A stretch of DNA of 64,000 nucleotides from Rickettsiales bacterium. Lineage in GTDB: Bacteria > Pseudomonadota > Alphaproteobacteria > Rs-D84. Positions within the stretch are counted from its first letter, which is position 1. Each line of letters starts with the position of its first letter. The position numbers and the translations under genes were made by a program. The DNA is taken from the NCBI GenBank assembly GCA_031266915.1, contig JAISAB010000002.1, forward strand, positions 12,738 to 76,737. The letters are read 5' to 3'. Positions 2,317 through 53,900 of this stretch are shown here, in pieces. The notes under the pieces were generated by a model that was not told where the DNA came from, made no database searches, and was given only the letters and a program-made list of their open reading frames with translations.

Positions 2317-3618
2317 TTAATCCGATATTTTTTGCACTAATACACGAGCAAACCCACTTTTTCCGTTTGTATAAGGTTCATATCGTTTATCTTGAACGAT
2401 TTCATATCCGCGTTCCAATAATCCATCCAAAATAGGATTTGCCGATACGGCAAACGGCTTTTCATAATCGTTCGGAATATATCCATTATCAACCAACAAG
2501 GTTTCTGTATCATCATATTTTTTGTTTTTTTCTGGTATATCTGCCATTGGAATAATTTTTAAACATTTTGCTTTTGGACGATTCATGACGGGCAAGTTTG
2601 TGAACCAATGCCCCGCTGCTGTCATCAACTCTTTTTTCGGATTCAGATACCAACGAACCCGTCTATGCCCAGCCCAAACCTTTCCATTCATAAAATACGG
2701 AATGTATGCTGTATTTATTGTGTTTGTATAATTTGATATAATCAAAAACTTCTTACCGCTTTCAATTATTATTTTCCAATAATCTATTGCCCGCGAAAAT
2801 GGCGGGTTCGTGCAAACTATATCCGCTTCATCGTGCAAGATTCGCAAAGATTCTTTATCGTCAAAACTGCCAGTATAGTTGTCTGGTTCTGTTTTTATCT
2901 CTTGAAACCCGTCCTTGGTAAAAATATACCCTTTGCCTTTTGCATTGAATAAATCAAGACCGCCGCTGTAATGCGCACATATTAACTTTTTCAATCCAAG
3001 TTGCATAAAGTTCTGTATAAAATAAAGTGCAAACGCAGATGTATTATTGCCGTTTCGTGGAATGTCGCCGACCGCATCATCGCAATTACAGAAAACAACC
3101 TTATTTATCCAAATCTCTTTATCATACATTGCGATTTCTTTTTCTATGTCTTCATAGCGGGTATAAAACTCATCATTTTTGACTTTTCTTGCTTTTTGCA
3201 TCAGGTCTTTATGGGTTATATCTCTTTCTTTCAATGTTGGTGTTGTTTTCTTGATGATTTTCACAATGCGCTTTTTCGTATCGGGTTTCATAAAAACCTG
3301 TTTGATAAACAACTGGTGGGACTTTATAAAATCAACATATCCATCAAACAGTGCAGAATTATAAAAATAGATTTCACGCCGCGAATCTTCGCGTAATTGA
3401 GGAAAGTGATTTTTTATATCATTTTCCATTTTCTGCATATCCTTGACTTCGCAGGTAAACAAATACTGATAAACGTTATCTTTTGACCTGCCAGTCATGT
3501 TATTATATTCCGACAACCGCCGTTCAAGATTATCGGTCAATCCAATCTTGCATTTTCCTTGTTCTAACGATGCCTGAACAATATAGATATATTGTTTATT
3601 TTTCTTTTCCATGACCAT
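2317..3618 (-). CDS. Low-GC fusion protein: N-terminal GIY-YIG/T5orf172-like nuclease domain plus C-terminal amino-methyltransferase domain (motif IV 'IVCTNPPF'); putative DNA N6-adenine/N4-cytosine methyltransferase
   Basis: KQYIYIVQ…KIGLTDNLERRLSEY (GIY-YIG-like) then …DIVCTNPPFS. GC is about 33% against about 60% for neighbours. ORF tool start is 3822; ATG at 3618 (MVMEKKNKQ) chosen. Confidence 0.65.
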   Translation of the reverse strand: MVMEKKNKQYIYIVQASLEQGKCKIGLTDNLERRLSEYNNMTGRSKDNVYQYLFTCEVKDMQKMENDIKNHFPQLREDSRREIYFYNSALFDGYVDFIKSHQLFIKQVFMKPDTKKRIVKIIKKTTPTLKERDITHKDLMQKARKVKNDEFYTRYEDIEKEIAMYDKEIWINKVVFCNCDDAVGDIPRNGNNTSAFALYFIQNFMQLGLKKLICAHYSGGLDLFNAKGKGYIFTKDGFQEIKTEPDNYTGSFDDKESLRILHDEADIVCTNPPFSRAIDYWKIIIESGKKFLIISNYTNTINTAYIPYFMNGKVWAGHRRVRWYLNPKKELMTAAGHWFTNLPVMNRPKAKCLKIIPMADIPEKNKKYDDTETLLVDNGYIPNDYEKPFAVSANPILDGLLERGYEIVQDKRYEPYTNGKSGFARVLVQKISD

Positions 3619-3954
3619 TTTATCCCTGTTTCTACACTGATAGCAATTATATGATAAACGTTTTGACATTGCAAGGAATTGCATAACATCTGTGATAATC
3701 TGCTTGCGTAGCTGATTTCTTATGCCTTTAATATCAAAGGATGCAGAACAGATTTGAATTCTGTATGCAAATATGTCGTCAACAAGGCGAAGACAGAGGC
3801 AACTAGATAAATATCTCAACAATTACTGGAAAGGTACATTCTTGGTGGTTTAGCTATATTGATAAAAGAACGCCCTGCGCCGCCGCAGGGAAAATATATT
3901 ATTTATCAAGCACAACCGACAAGAATGTACCTTTTTGGCCCCAAAAGCCCAATA

Positions 3955-4340: not shown

Positions 4341-4415
4341 GCGGGTATAGTTCAAAGGCTAGAATGTCAGCCTTCCAAGCTGAAAATGCGGGTTCGAGTC
4401 CCGCTACCCGCACCA
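4341..4415 (+). tRNA. tRNA-Gly (anticodon TCC), CCA encoded
   Basis: Cloverleaf GCGGGTA/TACCCGC acceptor, anticodon loop CTTCCAA, T-loop GGTTCGAGTCC, 3' CCA. Confidence 0.85.
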
Positions 4416-4504: not shown

Positions 4505-4591
4505 GGGCGTGCGCCGGAGTTGGAGAGCCGGGGCAGACTGTAAATCTGTTGGCTTATGCCTGAGCTGGTTCGAATCCAGCCACTCCCACCA
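4505..4591 (+). tRNA. tRNA-Tyr (anticodon GTA), type II with long variable arm; atypical C8 and one acceptor-stem mismatch
   Basis: Anticodon stem-loop GCAGA-CTGTAAA-TCTGT, variable arm about 14 nt, T-arm GCTGGTTCGAATCCAGC, CACTCCC-A-CCA end. The 5' strand GGGCGTG gives a C4·T69 mismatch. Confidence 0.55.
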
Positions 4592-5447: not shown

Positions 5448-7085
5448 TCACTCGTTCACTTCGACGCTGTCAATCAGCGTCCGGTCGATATGTTCCAGCG
5501 CCGCCGGCTGGAACTCGGTGGATTCTATAACATCGCTGTCATCTTCGGGCAGAATGACGACCGAATCCGCCGCTGGCGCCATCGGCGCGGTCGCCGCCAT
5601 GTTTGCGCCGAACGTCTTGGACGCGTACTTGCCGCGCAGACGTTCGGGAATCCGGATATATTTCATCGGATTGACGCCCGGACCCGTCAATTCCATTTCG
5701 TTCGCGCCGGAAATCTGGCCGGGCGCCGCGCTGTAAATCGGTATCAGAAAGTCCGTCCGCGGCGCGCGGACCAGCCGCGCCGCGCCGCCGCCAGTGATTT
5801 CAAGAATCTGCAAGGCGCGTTCGCTTTCGCCCGTCGGCCGTAATCGGAACAGGCCGTCCAATCCGTTATATCCGCCGGGGTCCAGCAGATAGGCCGCCGG
5901 CGCCCGGGATGAATGCAGCATGCCGATCGCCATGTTCGCGGCGTCGAATCCGAACGTGTCCAAACGCGACGGTTTGCGGCCCCAGACCTGTTCGTACAAT
6001 TTCGAAAAGTCCGCCGACTGCGGACCCAGCGCGGCGTACTTTGCCCCGACGAACGAAAAGTCGTTCAGCAATTCCGTGCCGTCCCACAGCGCCGTTCCAT
6101 AGAATCCGGCGTCGCGCGGCGCGACGTCGAAATAGCGCAGAAACGACGCGATGGCCTTGGTGTCGCCGGCGTTGCCCAGAAACAGGACGGCGTCGTACGG
6201 CACACCGCCCAATGTGTCGGATTTGCCCAGTTTGTCCAGCTGGGCGTTCAGGGACGATTTCTCGACCGCGGTCAGCGTTTCCCGGTTTAAAATATCAGCC
6301 AGGATTTCGCGCGCCTTGGTGTTCGCGGCCGTCCGCGCCCTATGCATAGAGGCCTTTTGCGCGGCGCGCTTGATGGAATCGGAATCGCCCTCGGCGTAAT
6401 AGAACACGCCCGCGACCGGCATGTCGTAGATGTTCGCGCTCTGCACGGCGGCGCCGGCCATTCGCGCGCCGGACGCGGTATCGGGCGCCATGACGATGAT
6501 TCCGCTGATATTGTCGGCGGTCATTTCTTTAACGATAATTTCGACGCTTTGCGACGGTATCAGGGCCATCGTCATAACGCCGTCGCCAATCGCGGACACG
6601 TCGGACGTAAACGACAAGACCGGCAGACTCTGGGGCTTCATATCGCGTAGCAGCGCCGCGTCTTCGGCAAAAACCGGGCCGATGACGATGTCCGGATTCG
6701 CCGCCAGGGCGCTTGTGATTACACCTTGTTTTTGCGATTTGTTTCCCGACAGGTCGTGAAATGTGACGGATATATTATCGTGCTTGCGTTGCAGAAACGC
6801 CATTTCGACGGACGCGTTTATGCCGTCGCCGACCGTCGCGTTCGGACCGGACAGCGGCAGCAGCACAGCGACGTTCTTCAAATCGGACGTCGGGGCGACT
6901 ACGTCCGTCGCATCGCCGCGCCCGTAAAGGCCGTATTCGGGGTAATAGAAATCACTTTGCATTTGGACGGGACGAGACGCCGGCGCTTCGCCGTATTCGC
7001 CGTGCCAGCCGGCCTGCGGCGCGCACGCGCCGACCAACATCGCAAGGCACAGGGCGCAAGGCGCGGACAGTTTTTTTATAAACAT
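5448..7085 (-). CDS. Periplasmic-binding-fold lipoprotein, LpoA/penicillin-binding-protein-activator-like (LivK-like fold)
   Basis: Lipobox LAMLVGAC; Leu/Ile/Val-binding-protein-like domain. Divergent from rsmI as in the E. coli yraM(lpoA)-yraL(rsmI) arrangement. Confidence 0.5.
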   Translation of the reverse strand: MFIKKLSAPCALCLAMLVGACAPQAGWHGEYGEAPASRPVQMQSDFYYPEYGLYGRGDATDVVAPTSDLKNVAVLLPLSGPNATVGDGINASVEMAFLQRKHDNISVTFHDLSGNKSQKQGVITSALAANPDIVIGPVFAEDAALLRDMKPQSLPVLSFTSDVSAIGDGVMTMALIPSQSVEIIVKEMTADNISGIIVMAPDTASGARMAGAAVQSANIYDMPVAGVFYYAEGDSDSIKRAAQKASMHRARTAANTKAREILADILNRETLTAVEKSSLNAQLDKLGKSDTLGGVPYDAVLFLGNAGDTKAIASFLRYFDVAPRDAGFYGTALWDGTELLNDFSFVGAKYAALGPQSADFSKLYEQVWGRKPSRLDTFGFDAANMAIGMLHSSRAPAAYLLDPGGYNGLDGLFRLRPTGESERALQILEITGGGAARLVRAPRTDFLIPIYSAAPGQISGANEMELTGPGVNPMKYIRIPERLRGKYASKTFGANMAATAPMAPAADSVVILPEDDSDVIESTEFQPAALEHIDRTLIDSVEVNE

Positions 7086-11329: not shown

Positions 11330-11437
11330 AAACACTAGTGTATAGTTAATAGTCATTAGTCAGTAGTCATTAGTGAATGTGTCGCGCCTTTGGCGCGATG
11401 ACTTTATTAACTATAGACTATTGACTGTGCACTATCG
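11330..11437. repeat. TAGTNNN-heptad long hairpin element with central GC hairpin (gtgtcgcgcctttggcgcgatgac)
   Basis: Arms tagtcat/tagtcag/tagtcat/tagtgaa and their reverse complements. Confidence 0.7.
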
Positions 11438-11695
11438 TTTACTTTCAATGCATTCTTCCCATTTTTTGTTGACGCACTTTTTTGTCCCAAGCAGACCCGT
11501 GGCCGTCAAGCATTGTACAATCATGCCGGATTCGCATACGTTGCTGGCGCATTTCCTGAACAATGCGTCGTCCAGATTTGGATAGCATGATTTCATGGCG
11601 CCAGTCGAAATTAGTTCGTTCGGCGCCGGGCTGTTCGTTTGCGGCGCGGCCCAGACGGCCGACGACGAAAATAAGAGAAAAATTAAAAATATCAT
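11432..11695 (-). CDS. Small secreted cysteine-rich protein (87 aa, signal peptide, 6 Cys)
   Basis: Signal peptide MIFLIFLLFSSSAVWA; preceded by the conserved structured leader. Confidence 0.5.
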   Translation of the reverse strand: MIFLIFLLFSSSAVWAAPQTNSPAPNELISTGAMKSCYPNLDDALFRKCASNVCESGMIVQCLTATGLLGTKKCVNKKWEECIESKR

Positions 11696-11872
11696 ATTTC
11701 AAACCTCGCTTTTCGTTCAGTTAAAAACCACCAAAATTTGGTGGTTGGAGGTTAAGAACTATAAATCAGTATAGCGTGCTTATTTTGCGGCAAGCCGCAT
11801 TATTCACAACCCTCCAACCTGATAAGTTGGAGGATTTTTTCGTCCCCGCGGACGCTGATTTCAGAGGTTCTT
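11696..11872 (-). promoter_or_regulatory. Conserved structured 5' leader (attenuator/riboswitch-like), subtype 1
   Basis: Gene-sense: hairpin CCTCCAAC/GGTTGGAGG; linker GAATAATGCGG; AACCTCCAACC; terminator CCACC-N-GGTGG-UUUUU; RBS; ATG. Confidence 0.65.
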
Positions 11873-12034
11873 AATCCTCGACGTCGGAACACCCGGCGTC
11901 ACCGGCAATGGTAGCATCTGTGAGATTTAAATCAATAAGATTTTTGTGTCAAGGCAAAAGGTAGAAGGCAGAAGTCAGAAGGTAAAAGGCAGAAGTAGGC
12001 AAGCTTGCCCCAAATCATAAATTTATTACTTCTG

Positions 12035-12129: not shown

Positions 12130-12378
12130 CCTGAAAGCAATGCTACAATCCCTGTGTCGCGGAGAATTTCTGCGATGGGGTGTCACAGCCTTGCACATGC
12201 GTCGAGAGATGATTGGCGCGCTTTTGCGCCGATTTTTATATCACGGCGAAAAATAACTCCTGACCGGGTCAGGAGGGCTCGTGAATATATTGAATAAACG
12301 GCACAATTCATGTGATTGTTGTGAACCTCCTGACCGCCATTTACCGGCGGTTTTTCGTTCGAAAAAAAGGAGGTTAGG
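12130..12378 (+). promoter_or_regulatory. Conserved structured 5' leader (attenuator/riboswitch-like), subtype 2, upstream of a cysteine-rich secreted protein gene
   Basis: Hairpin CTCCTGACC/GGTCAGGAG; linker GAATATATTGAATAAACGG; AACCTCCTGACC; terminator GACCGCC-N-GGCGGTT-UUUUU; AAAAAAAGGAGG-ATG. Covaries with the other copies. Confidence 0.7.
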
Positions 12379-13002
12379 ATGAAGTTTAAAATATTAGTGC
12401 GCGCAACGGCATTTTTGATTGCGTTTGGATTCGCATTCGCATCGTCTGATTCATTTGCAGAGGAGCCTGTAGAAGAAGCCCCCGATTGTAGTGGTCAATC
12501 CTGGTGCACTTACTTTACTGGCGGTAGACGTTGTGGTGGTGAAGATTGCAATGTAGGTAGGTATGGTACTTGCGAGTGTGTGGAAATTGTTGCGCAATGC
12601 ATTTGCAACGCCGGATATGAAATTTTTGGCGACGGCGAAGATTGCACTTGCACCGCGAAATGCGCGAACACCTGCCAGTCCAGCGGCACCACGGCATGCG
12701 CCATCCAAAATGGCGCCGGCACCAAGCAGAATACAGGTGGAAACAACTGCACGGGCAACTGCACGTATGGAGCATGCACGGTATCGTCATGCAACAACGG
12801 GTACTATAAAAATGGAAATGTATGCACGGCATGTACGGCGCCCGACGGAATCACTTTGACTAATGGCAGCAATCCGGCTATCGGCATGAATATAAAAAGC
12901 AAGAACAACGGAGTGAATGGAAGAACCGATTGCTATATAGAAGGAAATTTCAACGATTCGACCGGGGCATTCGGCATCACTGGCACCAATTGCACTTATT
13001 AA
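12379..13002 (+). CDS. Secreted cysteine-rich protein (repetitive C-x-C / N-G-T-rich modules)
   Basis: Signal peptide MKFKILVRATAFLIAFGFAFA; more than 25 Cys; strong Shine-Dalgarno. Confidence 0.6.
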   Translation: MKFKILVRATAFLIAFGFAFASSDSFAEEPVEEAPDCSGQSWCTYFTGGRRCGGEDCNVGRYGTCECVEIVAQCICNAGYEIFGDGEDCTCTAKCANTCQSSGTTACAIQNGAGTKQNTGGNNCTGNCTYGACTVSSCNNGYYKNGNVCTACTAPDGITLTNGSNPAIGMNIKSKNNGVNGRTDCYIEGNFNDSTGAFGITGTNCTY

Positions 13003-21212: not shown

Positions 21213-21609
21213 AGTTTCCGCACAGCGTGTGCGTGCCGGACGAATCGCGGACCTGGATGCATCCGTTTTGAAACCATATCTTTGCGCGTCCGGCCGGGGC
21301 CGCGGCCGATGGTTCCGATGTCTTGACGGTGTCGAAACGCGCGTCGTCGCCGGCCGCGACGGTGCCTGTATCCGTACCGACGGGAATCCGCGCGATACCT
21401 AATGTTCCACTTGTTATATTCGCCGCATTCGTCTGGTCCAAGTTCTGAACGTTACCGAGGCCGACCTGGGCCGCCGTCACGTTATGCGGATTGTCAGTTC
21501 GCGCGGTGTGCGCGTCGACATAGCTCTTGCCGGCAATTTCCGCCAATGCCGGCGTCGCGGCAAAAAAACATAATAAAAACATAATTCGTTTTTTCATATT
21601 CACAGCCAT
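21211..21609 (-). CDS. Secreted tail-fibre-like protein, short paralog (signal peptide + 'EIAGKSYVD…DNPHNVTAAQVGLGNVQN…' N-module + small Cys C-terminus)
   Basis: N-module about 80% nucleotide-identical to the start of the upstream gene 21600..22475; motifs recalled from phage tail-fibre N-terminal domains. Confidence 0.55.
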   Translation of the reverse strand: MAVNMKKRIMFLLCFFAATPALAEIAGKSYVDAHTARTDNPHNVTAAQVGLGNVQNLDQTNAANITSGTLGIARIPVGTDTGTVAAGDDARFDTVKTSEPSAAAPAGRAKIWFQNGCIQVRDSSGTHTLCGN

Positions 21610-22475
21610 ATGTCCGACAGCATATTTATCATGTCGCCGCCGGACAGGTAATAGACTTCGTCATTGCAGCTGTTGACGCAATTGGTATAGCTGTTGCCGC
21701 CAAGCTGGTTCCAGTTTGAATTTGTCGGGTAATACCATCGGGACGTGCGGCCGTATTTGTCCGTTGCGCGAATCCAGCAATATCTGCGGGCGTGGTATTC
21801 CATAGTCTGGTCAATCGCGACTTCTTCGATAACGCGTCCGGTGCCGCCGGGCCGCGTGGTCGACGAGCATGTCGCGACCAGGAAAAATTTCTGGCCCAGA
21901 TGCGCCGCCAGCGCCCCGGCGCACAAATTCGACGTGCAGCTTTTGCCGCAATACTCGCCCCGATACAAACTAACGCTTACCAAGGTCCCGTTCGGCCCCA
22001 TTACCAATCCGGCGGTTTCGCCCGCGACGCCGCACATCAGTCCCAGCTCGTGTTTGCTGACGTAATCGACCGGCTGTCCGGCGCCGTTTTCGCACAGGGC
22101 GGGGGTCGTCACGCCGCCGCTGCGAACATAAAGGCATCCGTTTTCATACCATACCTTATCGCGGCCGTCGGCGGGAAGGCGCCAGGGCTCGGCCAATTCG
22201 ACGGTGTCGAACCGTGCGTCGTCGCCGGCCAAGACAGTGTTTTCATTTGTTCCAATGGGAATTCGCGCGGCATCCAATATGCCGGCGGTTATGTTCGCCG
22301 CGTTCGTCTGGTCCAAATTCTGGACGTTTCCCAGACCGACTTGGGTCGCCGTCACGCTATGCGGATTATCCGTGCGCGCGGCGTGCGCGTCGATGTACGC
22401 GTTGCCGGCGACATCAGCCCTGGCGTTTGCAACGCATGCGATTATGCAAATAAGACCGGCGGCGATGGATTTCAT
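21600..22475 (-). CDS. Secreted tail-fibre-like protein with Cys-rich C-terminal domain (long paralog)
   Basis: Signal peptide MKSIAAGLICIIACVANARA; same N-module as 21211; ATG at 22475 chosen (ORF tool start 22505 is GTG). Confidence 0.6.
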   Translation of the reverse strand: MKSIAAGLICIIACVANARADVAGNAYIDAHAARTDNPHSVTATQVGLGNVQNLDQTNAANITAGILDAARIPIGTNENTVLAGDDARFDTVELAEPWRLPADGRDKVWYENGCLYVRSGGVTTPALCENGAGQPVDYVSKHELGLMCGVAGETAGLVMGPNGTLVSVSLYRGEYCGKSCTSNLCAGALAAHLGQKFFLVATCSSTTRPGGTGRVIEEVAIDQTMEYHARRYCWIRATDKYGRTSRWYYPTNSNWNQLGGNSYTNCVNSCNDEVYYLSGGDMINMLSDIWL

Positions 22476-22665
22476 TTTTAACCTGTTTGACACAAAGCCA
22501 CCCACAGCGAACGCAAGGGTGGTTGGAGGTTAAAGACTATAATTTTCAGAAAATAGCGGGCTTATTCGATATATTCGCCGCCCTCCAACCGATGGTTGGA
22601 GGTTTTTATCGTCCCCGCGGACGCTGAAAATTAAGAGGTCTTTACGCCCCGCCGCAGGCCTTTGC
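22476..22665 (-). promoter_or_regulatory. Conserved structured 5' leader, subtype 1 (as 11696..11872)
   Basis: Hairpin AACCTCCAACC-atc-GGTTGGAGG; linker CGAATATATCGAATAAGC; AACCTCCAACC; hairpin CCACCC-N-GGGTGG; shared distal module cgtccccgcggacgctga…agaggtc. Confidence 0.65.
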
Positions 22666-22719
22666 CGCCCGCGACAAATATAGTTTAGCAAAAACGAGAA
22701 TGTAAATCAATAGGTTCGT

Positions 22720-22835
22720 GAAACCGTGATACGTGACACGAAATACGTAATACGAAATTGGCACAATAATGATTATATCGCACGATTTACGTATCACGAG
22801 TCACGTATTTCGTATTACGGCCTGCCGGATTCCTT
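22720..22835. repeat. Inverted repeat built from CGTGATA/CGTAATA-type heptads (about 30-bp arms, about 40-bp spacer)
   Basis: cgtgatacgtgacacgaaatacgtaatacg … cgtatcacgagtcacgtatttcgtattacg. Confidence 0.6.
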
Positions 22836-50465: not shown

Positions 50466-52208
50466 ATGTCAATTCGCATACTGCCTGATTCACTAATCGA
50501 TCAAATCGCCGCCGGCGAAGTGGTCGAGCGTCCCGCCAGCGTCGTCAAAGAACTGGTCGAAAACGCGCTGGATGCCGGCGCGGATGCGATTATCGTCGAC
50601 GCGGTCGACGGCGGGCGCACGCTGCTCAGCGTCATCGACAACGGATGCGGGATGTCGCGCGACGATTTGGAAAAAAGCATTACCCGGCACGCGACGTCGA
50701 AACTGCCCGACAACGATTTGATGAACATCAATTACATGGGATTCCGCGGCGAGGCGCTGCCGTCCATCGCGTCCGTGTCCGACATGACCATCGATACGCG
50801 AAGCATGACAGAATCACACGGCTGGCAGATGGATTGCGCCACTGGCCAGATAAAGCCGTCAGCGTGGGAGGCCGGCACGCGCATCCGCGTCGCGAATCTG
50901 TTTGCTAAAACGCCGGCCCGATTGAAATTCCTGCGGACCGACCGTGCCGAGATGATGTCCGTGACCGAGGTCGTAAAGCGCCTGGCGATGGCGCGCCCGG
51001 ACGTTGGATTCACGCTGAACAATCGCTGGCGTTTTCCAAAGGGCCAGAGTCTGGCCGAGCGCATTATCTCCGTCATGGGCGAAGAAGTTCGCGGCCGGAT
51101 GCTGGCGGTCGGCGACGCGTCAAATTCCGCCGGCACGCTGTCGCTGCGCGGATTTATTTCCGAACCGACGCTGCGCCGCGCGTCGTCAGTCGACCAGTAT
51201 CTGTTCGTCAACGGCCGGCCGGTCAAGGACAAGGTTTTGGTCGGCGCGCTGCGCGCCGCATATATGGATGTCATGCATGCGCGCGAATTTCCGCTGTGCG
51301 CGCTGTATCTGGAACTGGACCCGCGCAGCGTCGACGTGAACGTGTCGCCCGCCAAGACCGAGGTTCATTTTCTGGAACCGTCGCGCGTGCGCGGCTTTAT
51401 CATCCGAACATTGCGCGAAGTCCTGGCCAAAACAATGTTCGATTCTTTTTCAGAATCCGTGTCGGACGGCGGCGCGCCCTTTGTTCCCGCGCCGCACCAA
51501 GCGTCCTTTATGATGGGATTCAGTGACGTCGGCACTGTGGTGCGCAGCCGCCCGGCGGCATTTTTCGATACACAAATCCCTGTCAGTTTTGACGGATTCA
51601 GACCAGAAACGCCGGCCGTCGTCGACGAAGATACCGTCCATACCCGGCCGCTGGGGCGCGTCATTGGTCAATACAGCAAAAAATATATCGTTGCCGAAAG
51701 CGAACAGGGATTCGTAATCGTAGACCAGCACGCGGCGCACGAAAGAATCGTCTACGAAACCCTGCGCATGCATGCTATCAAGGTCCAGCCACTGTTAGCG
51801 CCGATTGTAATCAATATGAAGCCCGAGCAGGTCGACGCCGTTCTGACCGTCCGGGACGAGATGAAAAACTGCGGTCTGGCAATCGACCAATTCGGCGCGG
51901 ACAGCATCGCGATATTCGAAAAGCCCGCCGACTGGGATTTGAACTGGCAGACATTGCTGTCCGATATTGCGGACGAGGTGACGGCCCACGGGCATTCGTC
52001 CCAGCTGCATGAAAAACTGCACCTGAAGCTGGCGAATCACGCCTGCCACCATTCCGTACGCGCCGGCCAGCGACTGGATTACGCGCAGATGGACGCGCTG
52101 CTGCGCGATATTGAAAACACCGAGCGCGCCGGCCAATGCAACCACGGCCGCCCGGTATATAAGATTATAAAACAGCGAGAGCTGGATGGCTGGTTCGAGC
52201 GTATTTAA
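50466..52208 (+). CDS. mutL: DNA mismatch repair protein MutL
   Basis: MSIRILPDSLIDQIAAGEVVERPASVVKELVENALDAGA… GHKL ATPase N-terminus; C-terminal dimerisation domain. Confidence 0.9.
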   Translation: MSIRILPDSLIDQIAAGEVVERPASVVKELVENALDAGADAIIVDAVDGGRTLLSVIDNGCGMSRDDLEKSITRHATSKLPDNDLMNINYMGFRGEALPSIASVSDMTIDTRSMTESHGWQMDCATGQIKPSAWEAGTRIRVANLFAKTPARLKFLRTDRAEMMSVTEVVKRLAMARPDVGFTLNNRWRFPKGQSLAERIISVMGEEVRGRMLAVGDASNSAGTLSLRGFISEPTLRRASSVDQYLFVNGRPVKDKVLVGALRAAYMDVMHAREFPLCALYLELDPRSVDVNVSPAKTEVHFLEPSRVRGFIIRTLREVLAKTMFDSFSESVSDGGAPFVPAPHQASFMMGFSDVGTVVRSRPAAFFDTQIPVSFDGFRPETPAVVDEDTVHTRPLGRVIGQYSKKYIVAESEQGFVIVDQHAAHERIVYETLRMHAIKVQPLLAPIVINMKPEQVDAVLTVRDEMKNCGLAIDQFGADSIAIFEKPADWDLNWQTLLSDIADEVTAHGHSSQLHEKLHLKLANHACHHSVRAGQRLDYAQMDALLRDIENTERAGQCNHGRPVYKIIKQRELDGWFERI

Positions 52209-52777
52209 TATGGGCAATCAGATGTATATGTAAAGCTGCCGGTGGAATCTGAACCAGCGGTGCCAGCCGGTATATAGCAGCTGTTGACCGATGTCGCACC
52301 TGTACCGGACGTTGTGCCGCCGCCCGAGCATGGTTCGCAAATGGAACCGGACAAATAAAATCCCTTGTTGCATGTAATAGAACAATTTCCCGCCGACTTG
52401 GTGCACGAAGTATTACACTCGTTTGTGCCGCTGCATGCTTGATAACGCTTGGATGCGCCATTTGTTGGCTGTGTGCAACCGGTTGTGCTGTATGTCTGGT
52501 CACATTCGCAGATGTTTGGGTCGCAGGTTTCCCAATATGAGTTTTTGCATACATAACCGTCAATTTTTGTTCCGTTCTGTTGGTTTTTATTACATGTTTT
52601 GCCATTGCATTCCGAAACGACAGAGCAATCCATGTTTGCGCACGCGTAGCATTGACCGTTGTTTGCCAAAAGAAAGTACCCGTGGCCGCTTTCGGGAACA
52701 GATGCCGCTGCGCAGGGCCCCGTGTTGGCAAAGATGCATAAAGCCGTGTATAAAAATATAAATCCTGATTTCTTCAT
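52205..52777 (-). CDS. Secreted cysteine-rich protein (signal peptide; C-x-C/T-rich repeats)
   Basis: MKKSGFIFLYTALCIFANTGPCAAA signal peptide; more than 25 Cys; preceded by the conserved leader. Confidence 0.6.
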   Translation of the reverse strand: MKKSGFIFLYTALCIFANTGPCAAASVPESGHGYFLLANNGQCYACANMDCSVVSECNGKTCNKNQQNGTKIDGYVCKNSYWETCDPNICECDQTYSTTGCTQPTNGASKRYQACSGTNECNTSCTKSAGNCSITCNKGFYLSGSICEPCSGGGTTSGTGATSVNSCYIPAGTAGSDSTGSFTYTSDCPY

Positions 52778-53050
52778 TCCAAACCTCCTTTTTTAGCGAA
52801 TGAAAAAACCGCCGGGAAAAAGGCGGTCGGGAGGTTTACGACAATCCAATGAATTGTGCCGCTTATTCAATATATTCGCGAGCCCTCCCAACCAAGTCGG
52901 GAGATATTTTTCGCCGCAATAACAAAAATGGCGCGAAAGCGCGCCGATTTGTCAACAGCGCATTGGAAAGAGGTCGTAACACCCCGTCGCGGAAACTCTC
53001 CGCGGCACTTGAATCATACCAATAGTGAAATGTTTTTACAAGTGGTATAA
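52778..53050 (-). promoter_or_regulatory. Conserved structured 5' leader, subtype 2 (as 12130..12378)
   Basis: Gene-sense: CTCCCGAC/GTTGGGAG hairpin; GAATATATTGAATAAGCGG; AAACCTCCCGACC; terminator GACCGCC-N-GGCGGTT-UUUUUU; CATTCGCTAAAAAAGGAGG-ATG; distal module ccccgtcgcggaaactctccgcggcac. Confidence 0.7.
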
Positions 53051-53123: not shown

Positions 53124-53672
53124 TCATGGCGCGAAAGCCGATAGCAGCGCGGACACGAAAGCGGAACTGCTGGCGTCAGTTGAAGATACGCACTCATTCG
53201 CACACTTCGTTGCGCAATTGGCACCCCCGCTAAGTGACCCGTAATAAACCCAGCCGGCATAGTTTACATTATCGGAAATTCTTTTCAAACGGCACCAGCA
53301 GTACCATTCGGGGTAATTTAACTCCGTACCGCTGTGATTTCTGACGATATTGCAGCTCGCAATACCGGAACCGGCGGCAGAGGTAAGGCTGCATACGCTC
53401 TGAATAAGGTAGCCTCTGACCGCATTATTCGGAGTATGAGAAGATTGATAAACAGTGTATCCTTTGTATTCAAGTTCCAAGCCGGCATAGTTGCTGCCGG
53501 AATTATACTGCGTGTAGATGCCGTCCGCATAGTCTTCTGCCGGGTTCGCGTTTCCGGCATCGCCGCCGATTTCAAACTTCCCAGTTTCATCCTCTAAGGC
53601 TAAAACGGCAAAAGCGCCGCGCATTGCAGATACAAGCGCCCATGCGAATACGGCCAGGGTTAATTTTTTCAT
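53124..53672 (-). CDS. Hypothetical secreted protein with several Cys (signal peptide MKKLTLAVFAWALVSA)
   Basis: ATG at 53672 chosen (signal peptide); preceded by the conserved leader. Confidence 0.55.
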   Translation of the reverse strand: MKKLTLAVFAWALVSAMRGAFAVLALEDETGKFEIGGDAGNANPAEDYADGIYTQYNSGSNYAGLELEYKGYTVYQSSHTPNNAVRGYLIQSVCSLTSAAGSGIASCNIVRNHSGTELNYPEWYCWCRLKRISDNVNYAGWVYYGSLSGGANCATKCANECVSSTDASSSAFVSALLSAFAP

Positions 53673-53900
53673 CCAAACCTCCTTTTTTTTTGCGAATGAA
53701 AAAACCACCAGAAATTGGTGGTTGGAGGTTAGCGACTATCATTGCAAATAGCGGCGGTATTCGATATATTCCCGCGCCCTCCAACCGAAACGATTGGAGA
53801 CACAAAAAACATGCACGACAACGCTTCGTGCCAGCGTGCAATGAAGGAGGTCGCTAAACCCCGTCGCGGAAACTCTCCGCGGCACAAAGATTATGCACCG
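53673..53900 (-). promoter_or_regulatory. Conserved structured 5' leader, subtype 2: candidate attenuator/riboswitch
   Basis: Gene-sense: CTCCAA/TTGGAG hairpin; GGTTGGAGG…linker GAATATATCGAATACCGCC…AACCTCCAACC; terminator CCACC-AATTTCT-GGTGG-UUUUUU; CATTCGCAAAAAAAAAGGAGG-ATG. Confidence 0.7.

Follow-up and report, generated by a model that had tools for sequence, protein, structure and literature searches.

This study concerns a repeated leader element in a 64,000-nt stretch of DNA from a Rickettsiales bacterium (GTDB lineage Bacteria; Pseudomonadota; Alphaproteobacteria; Rs-D84; NCBI GenBank assembly GCA_031266915.1, contig JAISAB010000002.1, positions 12,738 to 76,737 of the forward strand). 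The whole stretch is called the window, and all coordinates are counted from its first letter. Five copies of the element were found in it and are designated c1 (11696), c2 (12130), c3 (22476), c4 (52778) and c5 (53673). Each copy lies on the strand of its following gene, which is minus for 11696, 22476, 52778 and 53673 and plus for 12130, and the genes encode exported, mostly Cys-rich proteins amid housekeeping genes. An initial annotation of the window had divided the copies into two groups of leaders with different distal modules. We show that the five repeats are one family of folded 5' leader RNAs of about 165 nt, strongly supported by covariation. Judged by its predicted fold, the family appears to be a new relative of the C4/a1b1 immunity RNAs of phages P1 and P7, and would be best described as a cis attenuator.

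From 5' to 3', the cassette consists of a sigma-70 type −10 box, hairpin H1, a small hairpin Pa, strand a1, hairpin H2, hairpin H3, a C4-like domain, an intrinsic terminator, a Shine-Dalgarno (SD) sequence and an open reading frame (ORF). In the C4-like domain, B:C serves as the closing stem, H4 carries the conserved loop GAAUA-N4-GAAUAA, Px is a small hairpin exposing strand a', and strand b' lies in the junction. Copy c3 is organized as follows.

22473-22710, minus strand: whole c3 cassette from −35 site to ATG, by sequence reading; covariance model (CM) match at 22517-22679 (162.9 bits, E = 9e-38)
22705-22710, minus strand: promoter-like −35 site TTGATT
22682-22690, minus strand: promoter-like extended −10 site TGCTAAACT
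22653-22673, minus strand: H1, the 5'-terminal hairpin CGCGGGC-GGCAAAG-GCCUGCG, beyond the limits drawn in the initial annotation
22635-22650, minus strand: Pa, a 4-bp hairpin GGGG-CGUAAAGA-CCUC, whose 8-nt loop holds the P1 5' strand UAAAGAC (comparable to phage b1)
22624-22633, minus strand: P2 5' strand UAAUUUUCAG (comparable to phage a1), with its partner at 22540-22549
22610-22623, minus strand: H2 in its short form, CGUCC-GCG-GGGACG (the string cgtccccgcggacg of the initial annotation)
22594-22602, minus strand: segment A, CCUCCAACC, the 5' arm of H3, a decoy with the same sequence as segment C
22582-22590, minus strand: segment B, GGUUGGAGG, the 3' arm of H3, complementary to A and to C
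22556-22581, minus strand: H4, stem GCGGC/GCCCGC with conserved loop GAAUAUAUCGAAUAA (hairpin 1 of the C4-like domain)
22538-22555, minus strand: Px/J and P2 3' strand, read as UAUUUU, CUGAAAAUUA (comparable to a') and UA
22553-22556 and 22537-22540, minus strand: Px arms CUAU (its C shared with the H4 3' arm) and AUAG (its G the first base of b'), a possible hairpin around a'
22531-22537, minus strand: P1 3' strand GUCUUUA (comparable to b')
22521-22529, minus strand: segment C, CCUCCAACC, which pairs with B and whose 3' end supplies the first terminator-stem bases
22490-22522, minus strand: terminator-like hairpin CCACCC..GGGUGG followed by CUUUGUGU, with a weak U tract and not called by the terminator scanner
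22473-22475, minus strand: ATG
21600-22475, minus strand: downstream ORF of 291 aa with a signal-peptide-like N terminus and no Pfam family

A search with nhmmer using a profile of the five copies gave exactly five matches in the 64 kb (E 1e-53 to 1e-71) and nothing else below 0.4. The CM was trained on 21 copies, comprising 20 from other genomes and window copy c3, and matched all five window copies at full length with 162.9 (c3), 106.1 (c1), 89.0 (c5), 87.6 (c4) and 76.3 bits (c2), the E-values ranging from 1e-16 to 9e-38. A core-pattern scan was performed on a database of one genome per species, in which at least 119 stretches matched. The CM total was 115 + 27 copies, consisting of the five window copies, fetched loci of gut and rumen Alphaproteobacteria metagenome-assembled genomes (MAGs) and IMG/VR viral contigs; copies in the fetched loci that the core pattern had not selected are referred to as by-catch copies. 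Beyond the window, about 140 copies were found in gut and rumen Alphaproteobacteria MAGs (Candidatus Enterousia, order Rs-D84) and about 65 in metagenomes. All 80 records among the matches listed are uncultured gut or rumen MAGs labelled Candidatus Enterousia, Alphaproteobacteria, Rickettsiales or similar, and window proteins share 72-77% identity with proteins in two family-bearing MAG loci, which marks the window as coming from a relative; an exact counterpart of the window BipA protein was not on record. Candidatus Enterousia has been placed in order Rs-D84, whose genomes are reportedly smaller than about 1 Mb (PMC12306168).

The whole window was scanned with Rfam 15 at gathering score, which gave two tRNAs only and no family on any leader, and in permissive Rfam scans of regions with the copies or with homologues no match reached its threshold. 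Searches of the literature on Enterousia, on Rs-D84 and on microbiome structured-RNA surveys yielded no description of the family, the supplement of the 224-motif paper not being covered. A large RNA family with strong covariation and without a match among the Rfam 15 models appears to have been undescribed so far.

The fold was examined on an alignment of 115 copies fitted to the CM. In this alignment 94.8% of the cells were paired versus 37-44% with the partners slid, double changes occurred in 44 of the 49 pairs, and the covariation score was 0.638 versus 0.06-0.08 for slid partners. For the variable pairs of P1, 0-1 of 113 sequences were unpaired and each pair had 28-62 double changes; on a plain MAFFT alignment of 60 sequences, no pair of this helix was broken and four positions showed 15-29 double changes each. 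Double changes were found in 10/10 pairs of P2, and an alignment-free duplex test of this helix gave −9.6 kcal/mol for cognate versus −3.7 kcal/mol for non-cognate strands (p = 2e-62). H1 showed double changes in all 8 pairs, with 94.6% of its cells paired across the family, while H2 was 97.4% paired with double changes in 5/5 pairs. Since G-U pairs are frequent in the helices of the CM-fitted alignment, the structure was assigned to the sense-strand RNA. Our confidence in the family and its helices is high.

Pa is a local hairpin of the form GGGG-N8-CCYC with the P1 5' strand in its loop. Its pair 40:53 was GC in 74 copies, GU in 19, AU in 18 and unpaired in 1, and A40 was accompanied by U53 in 18/19 cases (p = 1e-9). 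A pairing of the GGGG with the CCUC of segment C (lower P1), predicted by RNAalifold and the CM, was set aside for Pa. The variants GGAAU/AUUCC, GGAG/CUCC and CAGG/CCUG preserve Pa and not lower P1, so that the GGGG more likely pairs locally than with segment C. The Px pair 285:305 was UA in 65 copies, AU in 45 and unpaired in 0, and the length of the linker between Px and P2 rises with the length of P2 (rho = 0.55, p = 4e-10). Because such a correlation is the geometry of a loop crossing the P2 groove, the Pa/P1 and Px/P2 arrangements are probably loop-mediated contacts of the pseudoknot type rather than plain nested helices. The H4 loop varied as GAWAUA..RAAUAA in the by-catch copies, and a hairpin inserted into it was tolerated (c1 and locus L013).

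A TATAAT-like −10 box was located at a fixed 40-41 nt before the variable part of P1 in 62/113 copies, 51 of them with exact TATAAT. Because of this fixed distance, the transcript is predicted to start at H1. At the other end, a hairpin followed by a U run was present after the core in 105/114 copies, and a terminator scanner called it in c2 (12332-12352), c4 (52828-52807) and c5 (53723-53703).

Between these ends, segment B (NNNNGGAGG), the 3' arm of H3, is complementary both to segment A and to segment C (CCUCCNNNN), an identical copy of A located between P1 and the terminator. The pairs of B:C were kept better than those of A:B (mean 9.98/11 vs 9.08/11) and its duplex energy was lower (−20.7 vs −14.5 kcal/mol), B:C being the stronger in 98% of copies. 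The 9-bp core of B:C was nearly always paired over several haplotypes, and compensatory changes in this stem were seen in the by-catch copies, for example GGAGU with ACUCC and GAUU with AAUC. A metagenome scan fixing only U at B98, the last position of B, gave 65 family-like matches, in which the partner C151, left free, was A (45), G (14), C (5) or U (1). The 3' end of C also supplies the bottom pairs of the terminator stem.

The fold was then compared with the immI region of phage P7, using the immI sequence together with the Rfam alignments of C4 (RF01695) and c4-a1b1 (RF03163), both of clan CL00128; P7 itself scores 69.6 bits with C4 and 55.5 bits with c4-a1b1. Read in order, P7 immI contains a −10 box, the hairpin GUCGUAG..CUGCGAC, a 4-bp hairpin CGGG-UUUAGCAG-CCUG that presents b1 in an 8-nt loop, directly followed by a1 (GAUUGUG), and a spacer with CCGCA..UGCGG and a U run. 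C4 follows, with its closing stem, hairpin 1, hairpin 2 carrying a' in the loop, and b' in the junction; finally b2 and a2 overlap the ribosome-binding site of icd. The parts of the window family correspond to these as follows: H1 to the 5' hairpin (7 bp), Pa with the P1 5' strand in its loop to the hairpin with b1, the P2 5' strand to a1, H2 to the spacer, B:C to the closing stem, H4 to hairpin 1, Px, whose loop contains the P2 3' strand, to hairpin 2 with a', and the P1 3' strand to b'. The mapping is one-to-one, and therefore P1 corresponds to b1:b' and P2 to a1:a', paired in cis. The c4-a1b1 architecture (a 7-bp hairpin, a 4-bp hairpin whose 8-nt loop holds a target, and a second target 3' of it) was found in all five copies. 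The family also has the architecture of the C4 domain, with B:C enclosing H4, then Px, which surrounds the 3' strand of P2, and then the 3' strand of P1 ahead of C. Both the window family and phage c4 lie upstream of their gene on the same transcript. The hairpin and U run of the P7 spacer, between a1 and c4 at about 969-996 (L204), resemble the tip of the long form of H2 described below.

The two systems also differ. Hairpin 1 carries a conserved 15-nt loop GAAUA..GAAUAA in the window family and a tetraloop in phage c4; in the gut clade, a strand of the closing stem is duplicated as a decoy and an intrinsic terminator overlaps segment C; and the gut clade is chromosomal, present in many copies and placed before exported-protein genes, whereas phage c4 precedes ant. 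None of the window copies controls a phage antirepressor in an immunity region, as C4 does. Second targets of the a2/b2 kind were rejected for the gut clade: pairing of a'b' with the downstream 120 nt gave −9.5 kcal/mol for cognate vs −9.3 kcal/mol for non-cognate combinations (p = 0.28), and the a1 10-mer of c3 has no other occurrence in the window. With the Rfam models, C4 (gathering 45 bits) gave no match in the window at gathering and none at E<=10 around c1/c2, c4/c5, L058 and L166. The c4-a1b1 model matched below its gathering score of 46.7 at c2 (17.2 bits, 12143-12196) and c5 (16.8 bits, 53843-53894), both full-length and on H1 plus Pa; at E<=10 it gave none on c4 and none on c1, c3 being covered by the gathering-score window scan only.

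Divergent relatives that bridge the gut clade and the phage system were found on seven metagenome and five IMG/VR contigs, one element occurring on both types. These have the H4 loop of the family together with a B:C stem that covaries, such as GCUGGGAGU paired with GCUCCCAGC or CUCAGGAGU with GCUCCUGAG. In 10/12 of these contigs (L166, L173, L139, L186 and L180 from metagenomes, L205-L209 from IMG/VR) the element precedes an ANT/KilAC, Rha, Bro-N, AntA, KilA-N or ORF6N gene, while the ORFs after L148 and L179 gave no Pfam family. The antirepressor-linked relatives also carry b1/a1 and a C4-like domain with a GAAUA..GAAUA loop. Among L166, L173 and L205-L209, inspected by eye, b2/a2 were located just upstream of the ATG in L166, L173, L205, L206, L209 and approximately in L207. 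The CM of the gut family does not detect these relatives, which were parsed by eye; RF01695 gave no match at E<=0.01 across the seven antirepressor-linked loci, and no model of the Rfam C4 clan detected the metagenome examples, on which alone that scan was run. The leader family probably works like, and descends from, C4-type immunity RNAs, but lacks the second target that defines them. Features that seem to be new in the gut clade are decoy A, an overlap of the terminator with C, dispersal over the chromosome in many copies, and exported proteins as cargo. A C4-like subfamily before phage antirepressor genes was previously unrecognized, and it ties the leaders to the classic P1/P7 c4 immunity RNA. 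Contig L139 also contains a CRISPR direct repeat at 6863-6890 (Rfam CRISPR-DR4, 36.5 bits).

Because B has two partners and C overlaps the base of the terminator, transcription attenuation is proposed as the likeliest mechanism. Decoy A, having the sequence of C, would capture B as hairpin H3; with A:B and the terminator formed, the gene would be off. In the alternative C4-like fold, B:C would withhold the base of the terminator, RNA polymerase would read into the gene, and the gene would be on. A terminator hairpin must extend close to the U tract, and read-through is thus expected when its bottom pairs are withheld. Candidates for what tips the balance between A:B and B:C are a protein on the H4 loop, a leader RNA acting in trans on a1/b1, a small ligand, or folding kinetics alone. 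We consider it somewhat probable that this is a C4/a1b1-like leader family whose copies are self-contained cassettes, most likely attenuating transcription, and we hold the on/off logic of A:B and B:C, deduced from the fold model, with moderate confidence.

The design resembles the three-hairpin attenuators (trp-type, T-box and riboswitch expression platforms), in which likewise one strand has two exclusive partners and one of these partners is shared with an intrinsic terminator just before the SD. It differs from them in that the window leaders have no conserved leader-peptide ORF. The sole recurring ORF candidate, from a UUG in the H4 loop to a UAG in Px, starts in the variable N4, and a leader-peptide attenuator was rejected because this start codon is not conserved. 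No T-box or riboswitch family was found at gathering over the window, and none at E<=10 in the three stretches searched permissively.

Several points weigh against an attenuator of C4 descent. Rfam C4 models match neither the gut clade nor the antirepressor-linked clade, and the two c4-a1b1 matches are of about 17 bits and come from paralogues with near-identical H1. The core pattern fixed GGAGGG, GAAUA and AACCUCC, so many copies were found with those letters; the main alignment was fitted to the CM itself; and the homologous sequences are kin to each other, so that the events counted are not independent. When the energy model allowed nested pairs only, the minimum in 108/111 copies was the fold with P1 and the terminator, and forcing B:C, for which P1/P2 must break in such a model, cost +12 kcal/mol in the full leader and +7.7 kcal/mol in the truncated one. 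B:C would be competitive only when it coexists with P1 and P2 as a pseudoknot. Moreover, C and the terminator stem overlap by only 2-4 nt (2 nt in c3). Among the relatives linked to antirepressors, decoy A is largely or wholly absent and the hairpin that follows shows hardly any overlap with C, so that B:C may be a constitutive structural stem there.

Among the other explanations, protein-dependent attenuation, in which an RNA-binding protein on the H4 loop stabilizes either B:C or the A:B/terminator fold, as in the leaders of the ribonucleic antiterminator (RAT)/BglG, PyrR, HutP and TRAP systems, is unlikely but deserves consideration. Its site would be GAAUA, present twice in the H4 loop as half-sites and a third time, as GGAAUA, in long H2. 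The most conserved unpaired bases indeed lie in this terminal loop as the direct repeat GAAUA-N4-GAAUAA, subtype B (described below) repeats GGAAUA in H2, and switching between two folds needs an outside input; however, the loop accepts a hairpin between the half-sites (c1, L013), a tolerance that suits an RNA structural module no less than a protein site.

We regard C4-type antisense feedback as unlikely to the same degree. Here the terminated or processed leader of about 200 nt would itself be the product, its a'/b' binding nascent a1/b1 in trans, and each gene would have a private address by which same-locus transcripts are targeted. In P1/P7, C4 is cut by RNase P from a precursor to a trans-acting RNA of about 77 nt. 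The architecture of c4 plus a1/b1, the variation of P1/P2 sequences by locus while the other helices are constant, and the real a2/b2 targets of the relatives before antirepressor genes all agree with feedback, and short leader RNAs should accumulate if the default fold terminates. The lack of a second target in the gut clade (p = 0.28, with c3 a1 unique in the window) argues against it; cis pairing suffices for the covariation, and neutral compensatory drift also yields variable helices.

A riboswitch for a small molecule or ion, with the pseudoknotted multi-helix junction as aptamer and the ligand selecting B:C or A:B, is a poor candidate. Multi-copy c-di-GMP-I/GEMM riboswitches occur many times per genome upstream of surface and secreted protein genes, and the window family resembles them in being multi-copy, with own promoters, before envelope or secreted proteins and with a terminator after it. 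A large, highly conserved pseudoknotted core with a terminator overlapping one strand would also suit a riboswitch. No structural or sequence match to the c-di-GMP riboswitches was seen, though, and the fold maps onto an antisense/target RNA pair and onto no known aptamer; its conserved unpaired bases lie mainly in the terminal loop and not in the junction, and the downstream genes give no metabolic clue.

There is little probability that the leader is a non-switching 5' untranslated region, whose fold serves only to stabilize or mark the mRNA or is left over from a phage module, with a leaky terminator and with copies that resemble each other through duplication of gene cassettes. Such a leader would fit the P1/terminator fold being by far the most stable in the nested model and the downstream genes being fast-evolving paralogue families, but it leaves unexplained why decoy A duplicates C and why B:C is kept better than A:B with compensatory changes in unselected samples; a strong terminator before about 90% of the genes is also difficult to account for unless read-through is controlled. 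The model of the initial annotation, in which exchangeable aptamer or promoter modules are joined to a constant expression platform, is very improbable: H2 is short or long and H1 sequences differ among copies, but upstream and downstream parts pair in P1/P2, one CM fits end to end, and long H2 is the short stem extended.

The two groups of copies correspond in part to two subtypes of the attenuator-like leader, characterized over 114 parsed copies. Subtype A has a short H2, A/C of CCUCCAACC and a U-A pair in Px (CUAU..AUAG). In subtype B, a GC hairpin and a U run extend H2, A/C is CCUCCUGAC and Px contains an A-U pair (CAAU..AUUG); in the window, the subtype B copies 12130 and 52778 have A/C of CCUCCUGAC or CCUCCCGAC. 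An H3 of the GGUU type went with a short H2 in 66/67 copies and the GUCA type with a long H2 in 38/42, and the association of H3/C type was strong both with H2 length (66:1 vs 4:38, Fisher p = 1e-23) and with the Px pair (p = 4e-20). Intermediates were found in 11 copies (GGUU/CAAU/short H2). The long H2 is the same base stem (GCGUC..GACG) lengthened by A-rich and U-rich arms, and in 37/40 subtype B copies its GC-rich tip is followed by a U run and looks like an intrinsic terminator. In c2, c4 and c5, these tips form a second terminator-like signal within the leader. The window itself shows that one genome carries both subtypes, with c1 and c3 of subtype A, c2 and c4 of subtype B, and c5 mixed, having a subtype A core, a terminator-like H2 and the same H1 as c4. 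The subtypes are structural variants of one fold and not alternative modules, and the genes are not partitioned by subtype. A spacer hairpin with a U run occurs in P7 and in the antirepressor-linked clade as well as in subtype B, which may therefore be the older form; subtype A would then have lost the H2 tip.

These results modify the earlier division. The copies had rightly been recognized as leaders of their downstream genes with a conserved proximal terminator and SD, but their limits were drawn too short, since 11696 and 22476 also have H1 and the −10 box and reach 11916 and 22690, respectively. The strings quoted for the two groups are present where they were placed and are not swappable modules. 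Thus cgtccccgcggacg, reported as shared by 11696 and 22476, was found at 11841-11854 and 22610-22623 and is H2 on the sense strand, and agaggt(t)ctt, also present, is the reverse complement of the P1 5' strand plus CCUCU, its difference between copies being a compensatory change in helix P1. The string ccccgtcgcggaaactctccgcggcac, assigned to 12130, 52778 and 53673, is identical in the latter two and only similar in 12130; it represents H1 followed by GGGG, and H1, taken as the mark of one group, is present in all five copies. The GGCGCGC hairpins of that group occur in 12130 and 52778, while 53673 has GCACG..CGUGC and then a U run. By the features that define the subtypes in about 114 homologues, 53673 belongs with 11696 and 22476, although it shares H1 and the terminator-like H2 tip with the 12130/52778 group. 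Subtypes therefore exist, with another membership than first drawn. Their parts are not randomly associated, as the above tests indicate, and the distal parts are not unrelated promoter DNA but RNA strands pairing with proximal ones in P1 and P2. This distal-proximal pairing makes the approximately 165 nt one fold, which speaks against a constant platform with exchangeable upstream aptamers, and H2 is the only truly variable module. That genes spread with their own leader subtype is contradicted by the three largest downstream protein clusters, which follow both subtypes.

A signal-peptide-like N terminus was predicted in 89/104 downstream ORFs, and many of the proteins are Cys-rich. Pfam/NCBIfam searches on 87 downstream proteins assigned any family to only about 20 of them, the families being XRE-type helix-turn-helix (HTH) proteins, Listeria-Bacteroides repeat proteins, outer-membrane barrels and an MsbA-like exporter; with so few assigned, gene function gives no clue to the signal. 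On visual inspection, members of the largest cluster of downstream proteins likewise showed the CWC..W motif of the c5 ORF. Small XRE-type HTH proteins of 60-90 aa, instead of exported proteins, follow a leader variant in which H2 is largely or entirely lacking (L002, L005, L025, L026, L029, L030, L061, L064, L078, L087, L090, L091 and L094); in the loci read (e.g. L005, L026, L094), H3 is weakened and A is CUCCACAACC.

The wider reading is that Rs-D84/Candidatus Enterousia domesticated a phage C4-type module as a genome-wide control of exported proteins with private a/b addresses, which we put forward tentatively and with considerable doubt. In that case possibly dozens of genes, five of them in the 64-kb window, would share the switch of decoy A, B and C/terminator, and a terminated leader could feed back on its own locus only, giving orthogonal, self-addressed RNA attenuators. 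The scaffold is thereby reused many times on a bacterial chromosome, before genes of exported and surface proteins, and, if the attenuator reading is true, a single RNA design would control many exported-protein genes of these uncultured gut bacteria. Variable P1/P2 'address' helices on a constant switch would also be of interest for building orthogonal RNA regulators.

The other four window copies are organized as follows.

11693-11916, minus strand: c1 cassette; CM match at 11739-11904, 106.1 bits
11908-11916, minus strand: c1 −10 box
11880-11900, minus strand: c1 H1
11864-11879, minus strand: c1 Pa/b1
11855-11861, minus strand: c1 a1
11841-11854, minus strand: c1 H2
11826-11833, minus strand: c1 segment A
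11811-11818, minus strand: c1 segment B
11774-11810, minus strand: c1 H4, with an extra hairpin inserted in the loop
11763-11769, minus strand: c1 a'
11748-11759, minus strand: c1 b'
11743-11751, minus strand: c1 segment C
11723-11746, minus strand: c1 terminator (by eye)
11693-11695, minus strand: c1 ATG
11432-11695, minus strand: c1 downstream ORF, 87 aa, Cys-rich, signal peptide
12141-12381, plus strand: c2 cassette, subtype B; CM match at 12152-12339, 76.3 bits
12141-12149, plus strand: c2 −10 box
12156-12176, plus strand: c2 H1
12177-12192, plus strand: c2 Pa/b1
12194-12199, plus strand: c2 a1
12200-12248, plus strand: c2 long H2 (terminator-like tip 12211-12234 plus U run)
12257-12264, plus strand: c2 segment A
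12268-12275, plus strand: c2 segment B
12276-12304, plus strand: c2 H4
12309-12314, plus strand: c2 a'
12318-12329, plus strand: c2 b'
12326-12334, plus strand: c2 segment C
12332-12355, plus strand: c2 terminator
12368-12373, plus strand: c2 SD
12379, plus strand: c2 ATG
12379-13002, plus strand: c2 downstream ORF, 207 aa, 21 Cys, signal peptide
52775-53021, minus strand: c4 cassette, subtype B; CM match at 52821-53010, 87.6 bits
53013-53021, minus strand: c4 −10 box
52986-53006, minus strand: c4 H1
52970-52985, minus strand: c4 Pa/b1
52961-52967, minus strand: c4 a1
52912-52960, minus strand: c4 long H2 (tip 52930-52945 plus U run)
52896-52903, minus strand: c4 segment A
52885-52892, minus strand: c4 segment B
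52856-52884, minus strand: c4 H4
52845-52851, minus strand: c4 a'
52831-52842, minus strand: c4 b'
52826-52834, minus strand: c4 segment C
52803-52828, minus strand: c4 terminator
52784-52789, minus strand: c4 SD
52775-52777, minus strand: c4 ATG
52205-52777, minus strand: c4 downstream ORF, 190 aa, 21 Cys, signal peptide
53670-53897, minus strand: c5 cassette, subtype A core with terminator-like H2; CM match at 53716-53887, 89 bits
53890-53897, minus strand: c5 −10 box
53863-53883, minus strand: c5 H1
53847-53862, minus strand: c5 Pa/b1
53839-53844, minus strand: c5 a1
53813-53838, minus strand: c5 H2 plus U run (terminator-like tip 53813-53831)
53792-53799, minus strand: c5 segment A
53779-53786, minus strand: c5 segment B
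53751-53778, minus strand: c5 H4
53739-53744, minus strand: c5 a'
53725-53736, minus strand: c5 b'
53720-53728, minus strand: c5 segment C
53699-53723, minus strand: c5 terminator
53678-53683, minus strand: c5 SD
53670-53672, minus strand: c5 ATG
53124-53672, minus strand: c5 downstream ORF, 182 aa, signal peptide, C-terminal CWC..W motif

A sub-threshold match to sRNA-Xcc1 (RF02221; 27.2 bits vs gathering 53, full length 1-87) at 52818-52892 on the minus strand spans exactly the B-to-C domain of c4. On the antisense strand, H3 with the A-rich linker resembles an intrinsic terminator at 11811-11833 (+), 22582-22602 (+) and 12257-12275 (-), and each leader could also stop transcription from the opposite direction. 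Between the divergent promoters of c1 and c2, the segment 11951-12042 contains two tandem 21-nt AG-rich repeats (AAGGCAAAAGGTAGAAGGCAG) and a 16-nt inverted repeat, GTAAAAGGCAGAAGTA / TACTTCTGCTTTTAAC. Directly upstream of the c3 promoter, at 22725-22819, lies a large imperfect palindrome of ATACGTNANACGAA units, its 22-nt arms being 86% complementary and 36 nt apart. Elsewhere in the window, an ORF at 2317-3822 on the minus strand joins an EcoRI-like adenine methyltransferase domain with a T5orf172/MUG113 domain, and the tRNA genes are located at 4341-4412 (+) and 4505-4588 (+), the second with a long variable arm.

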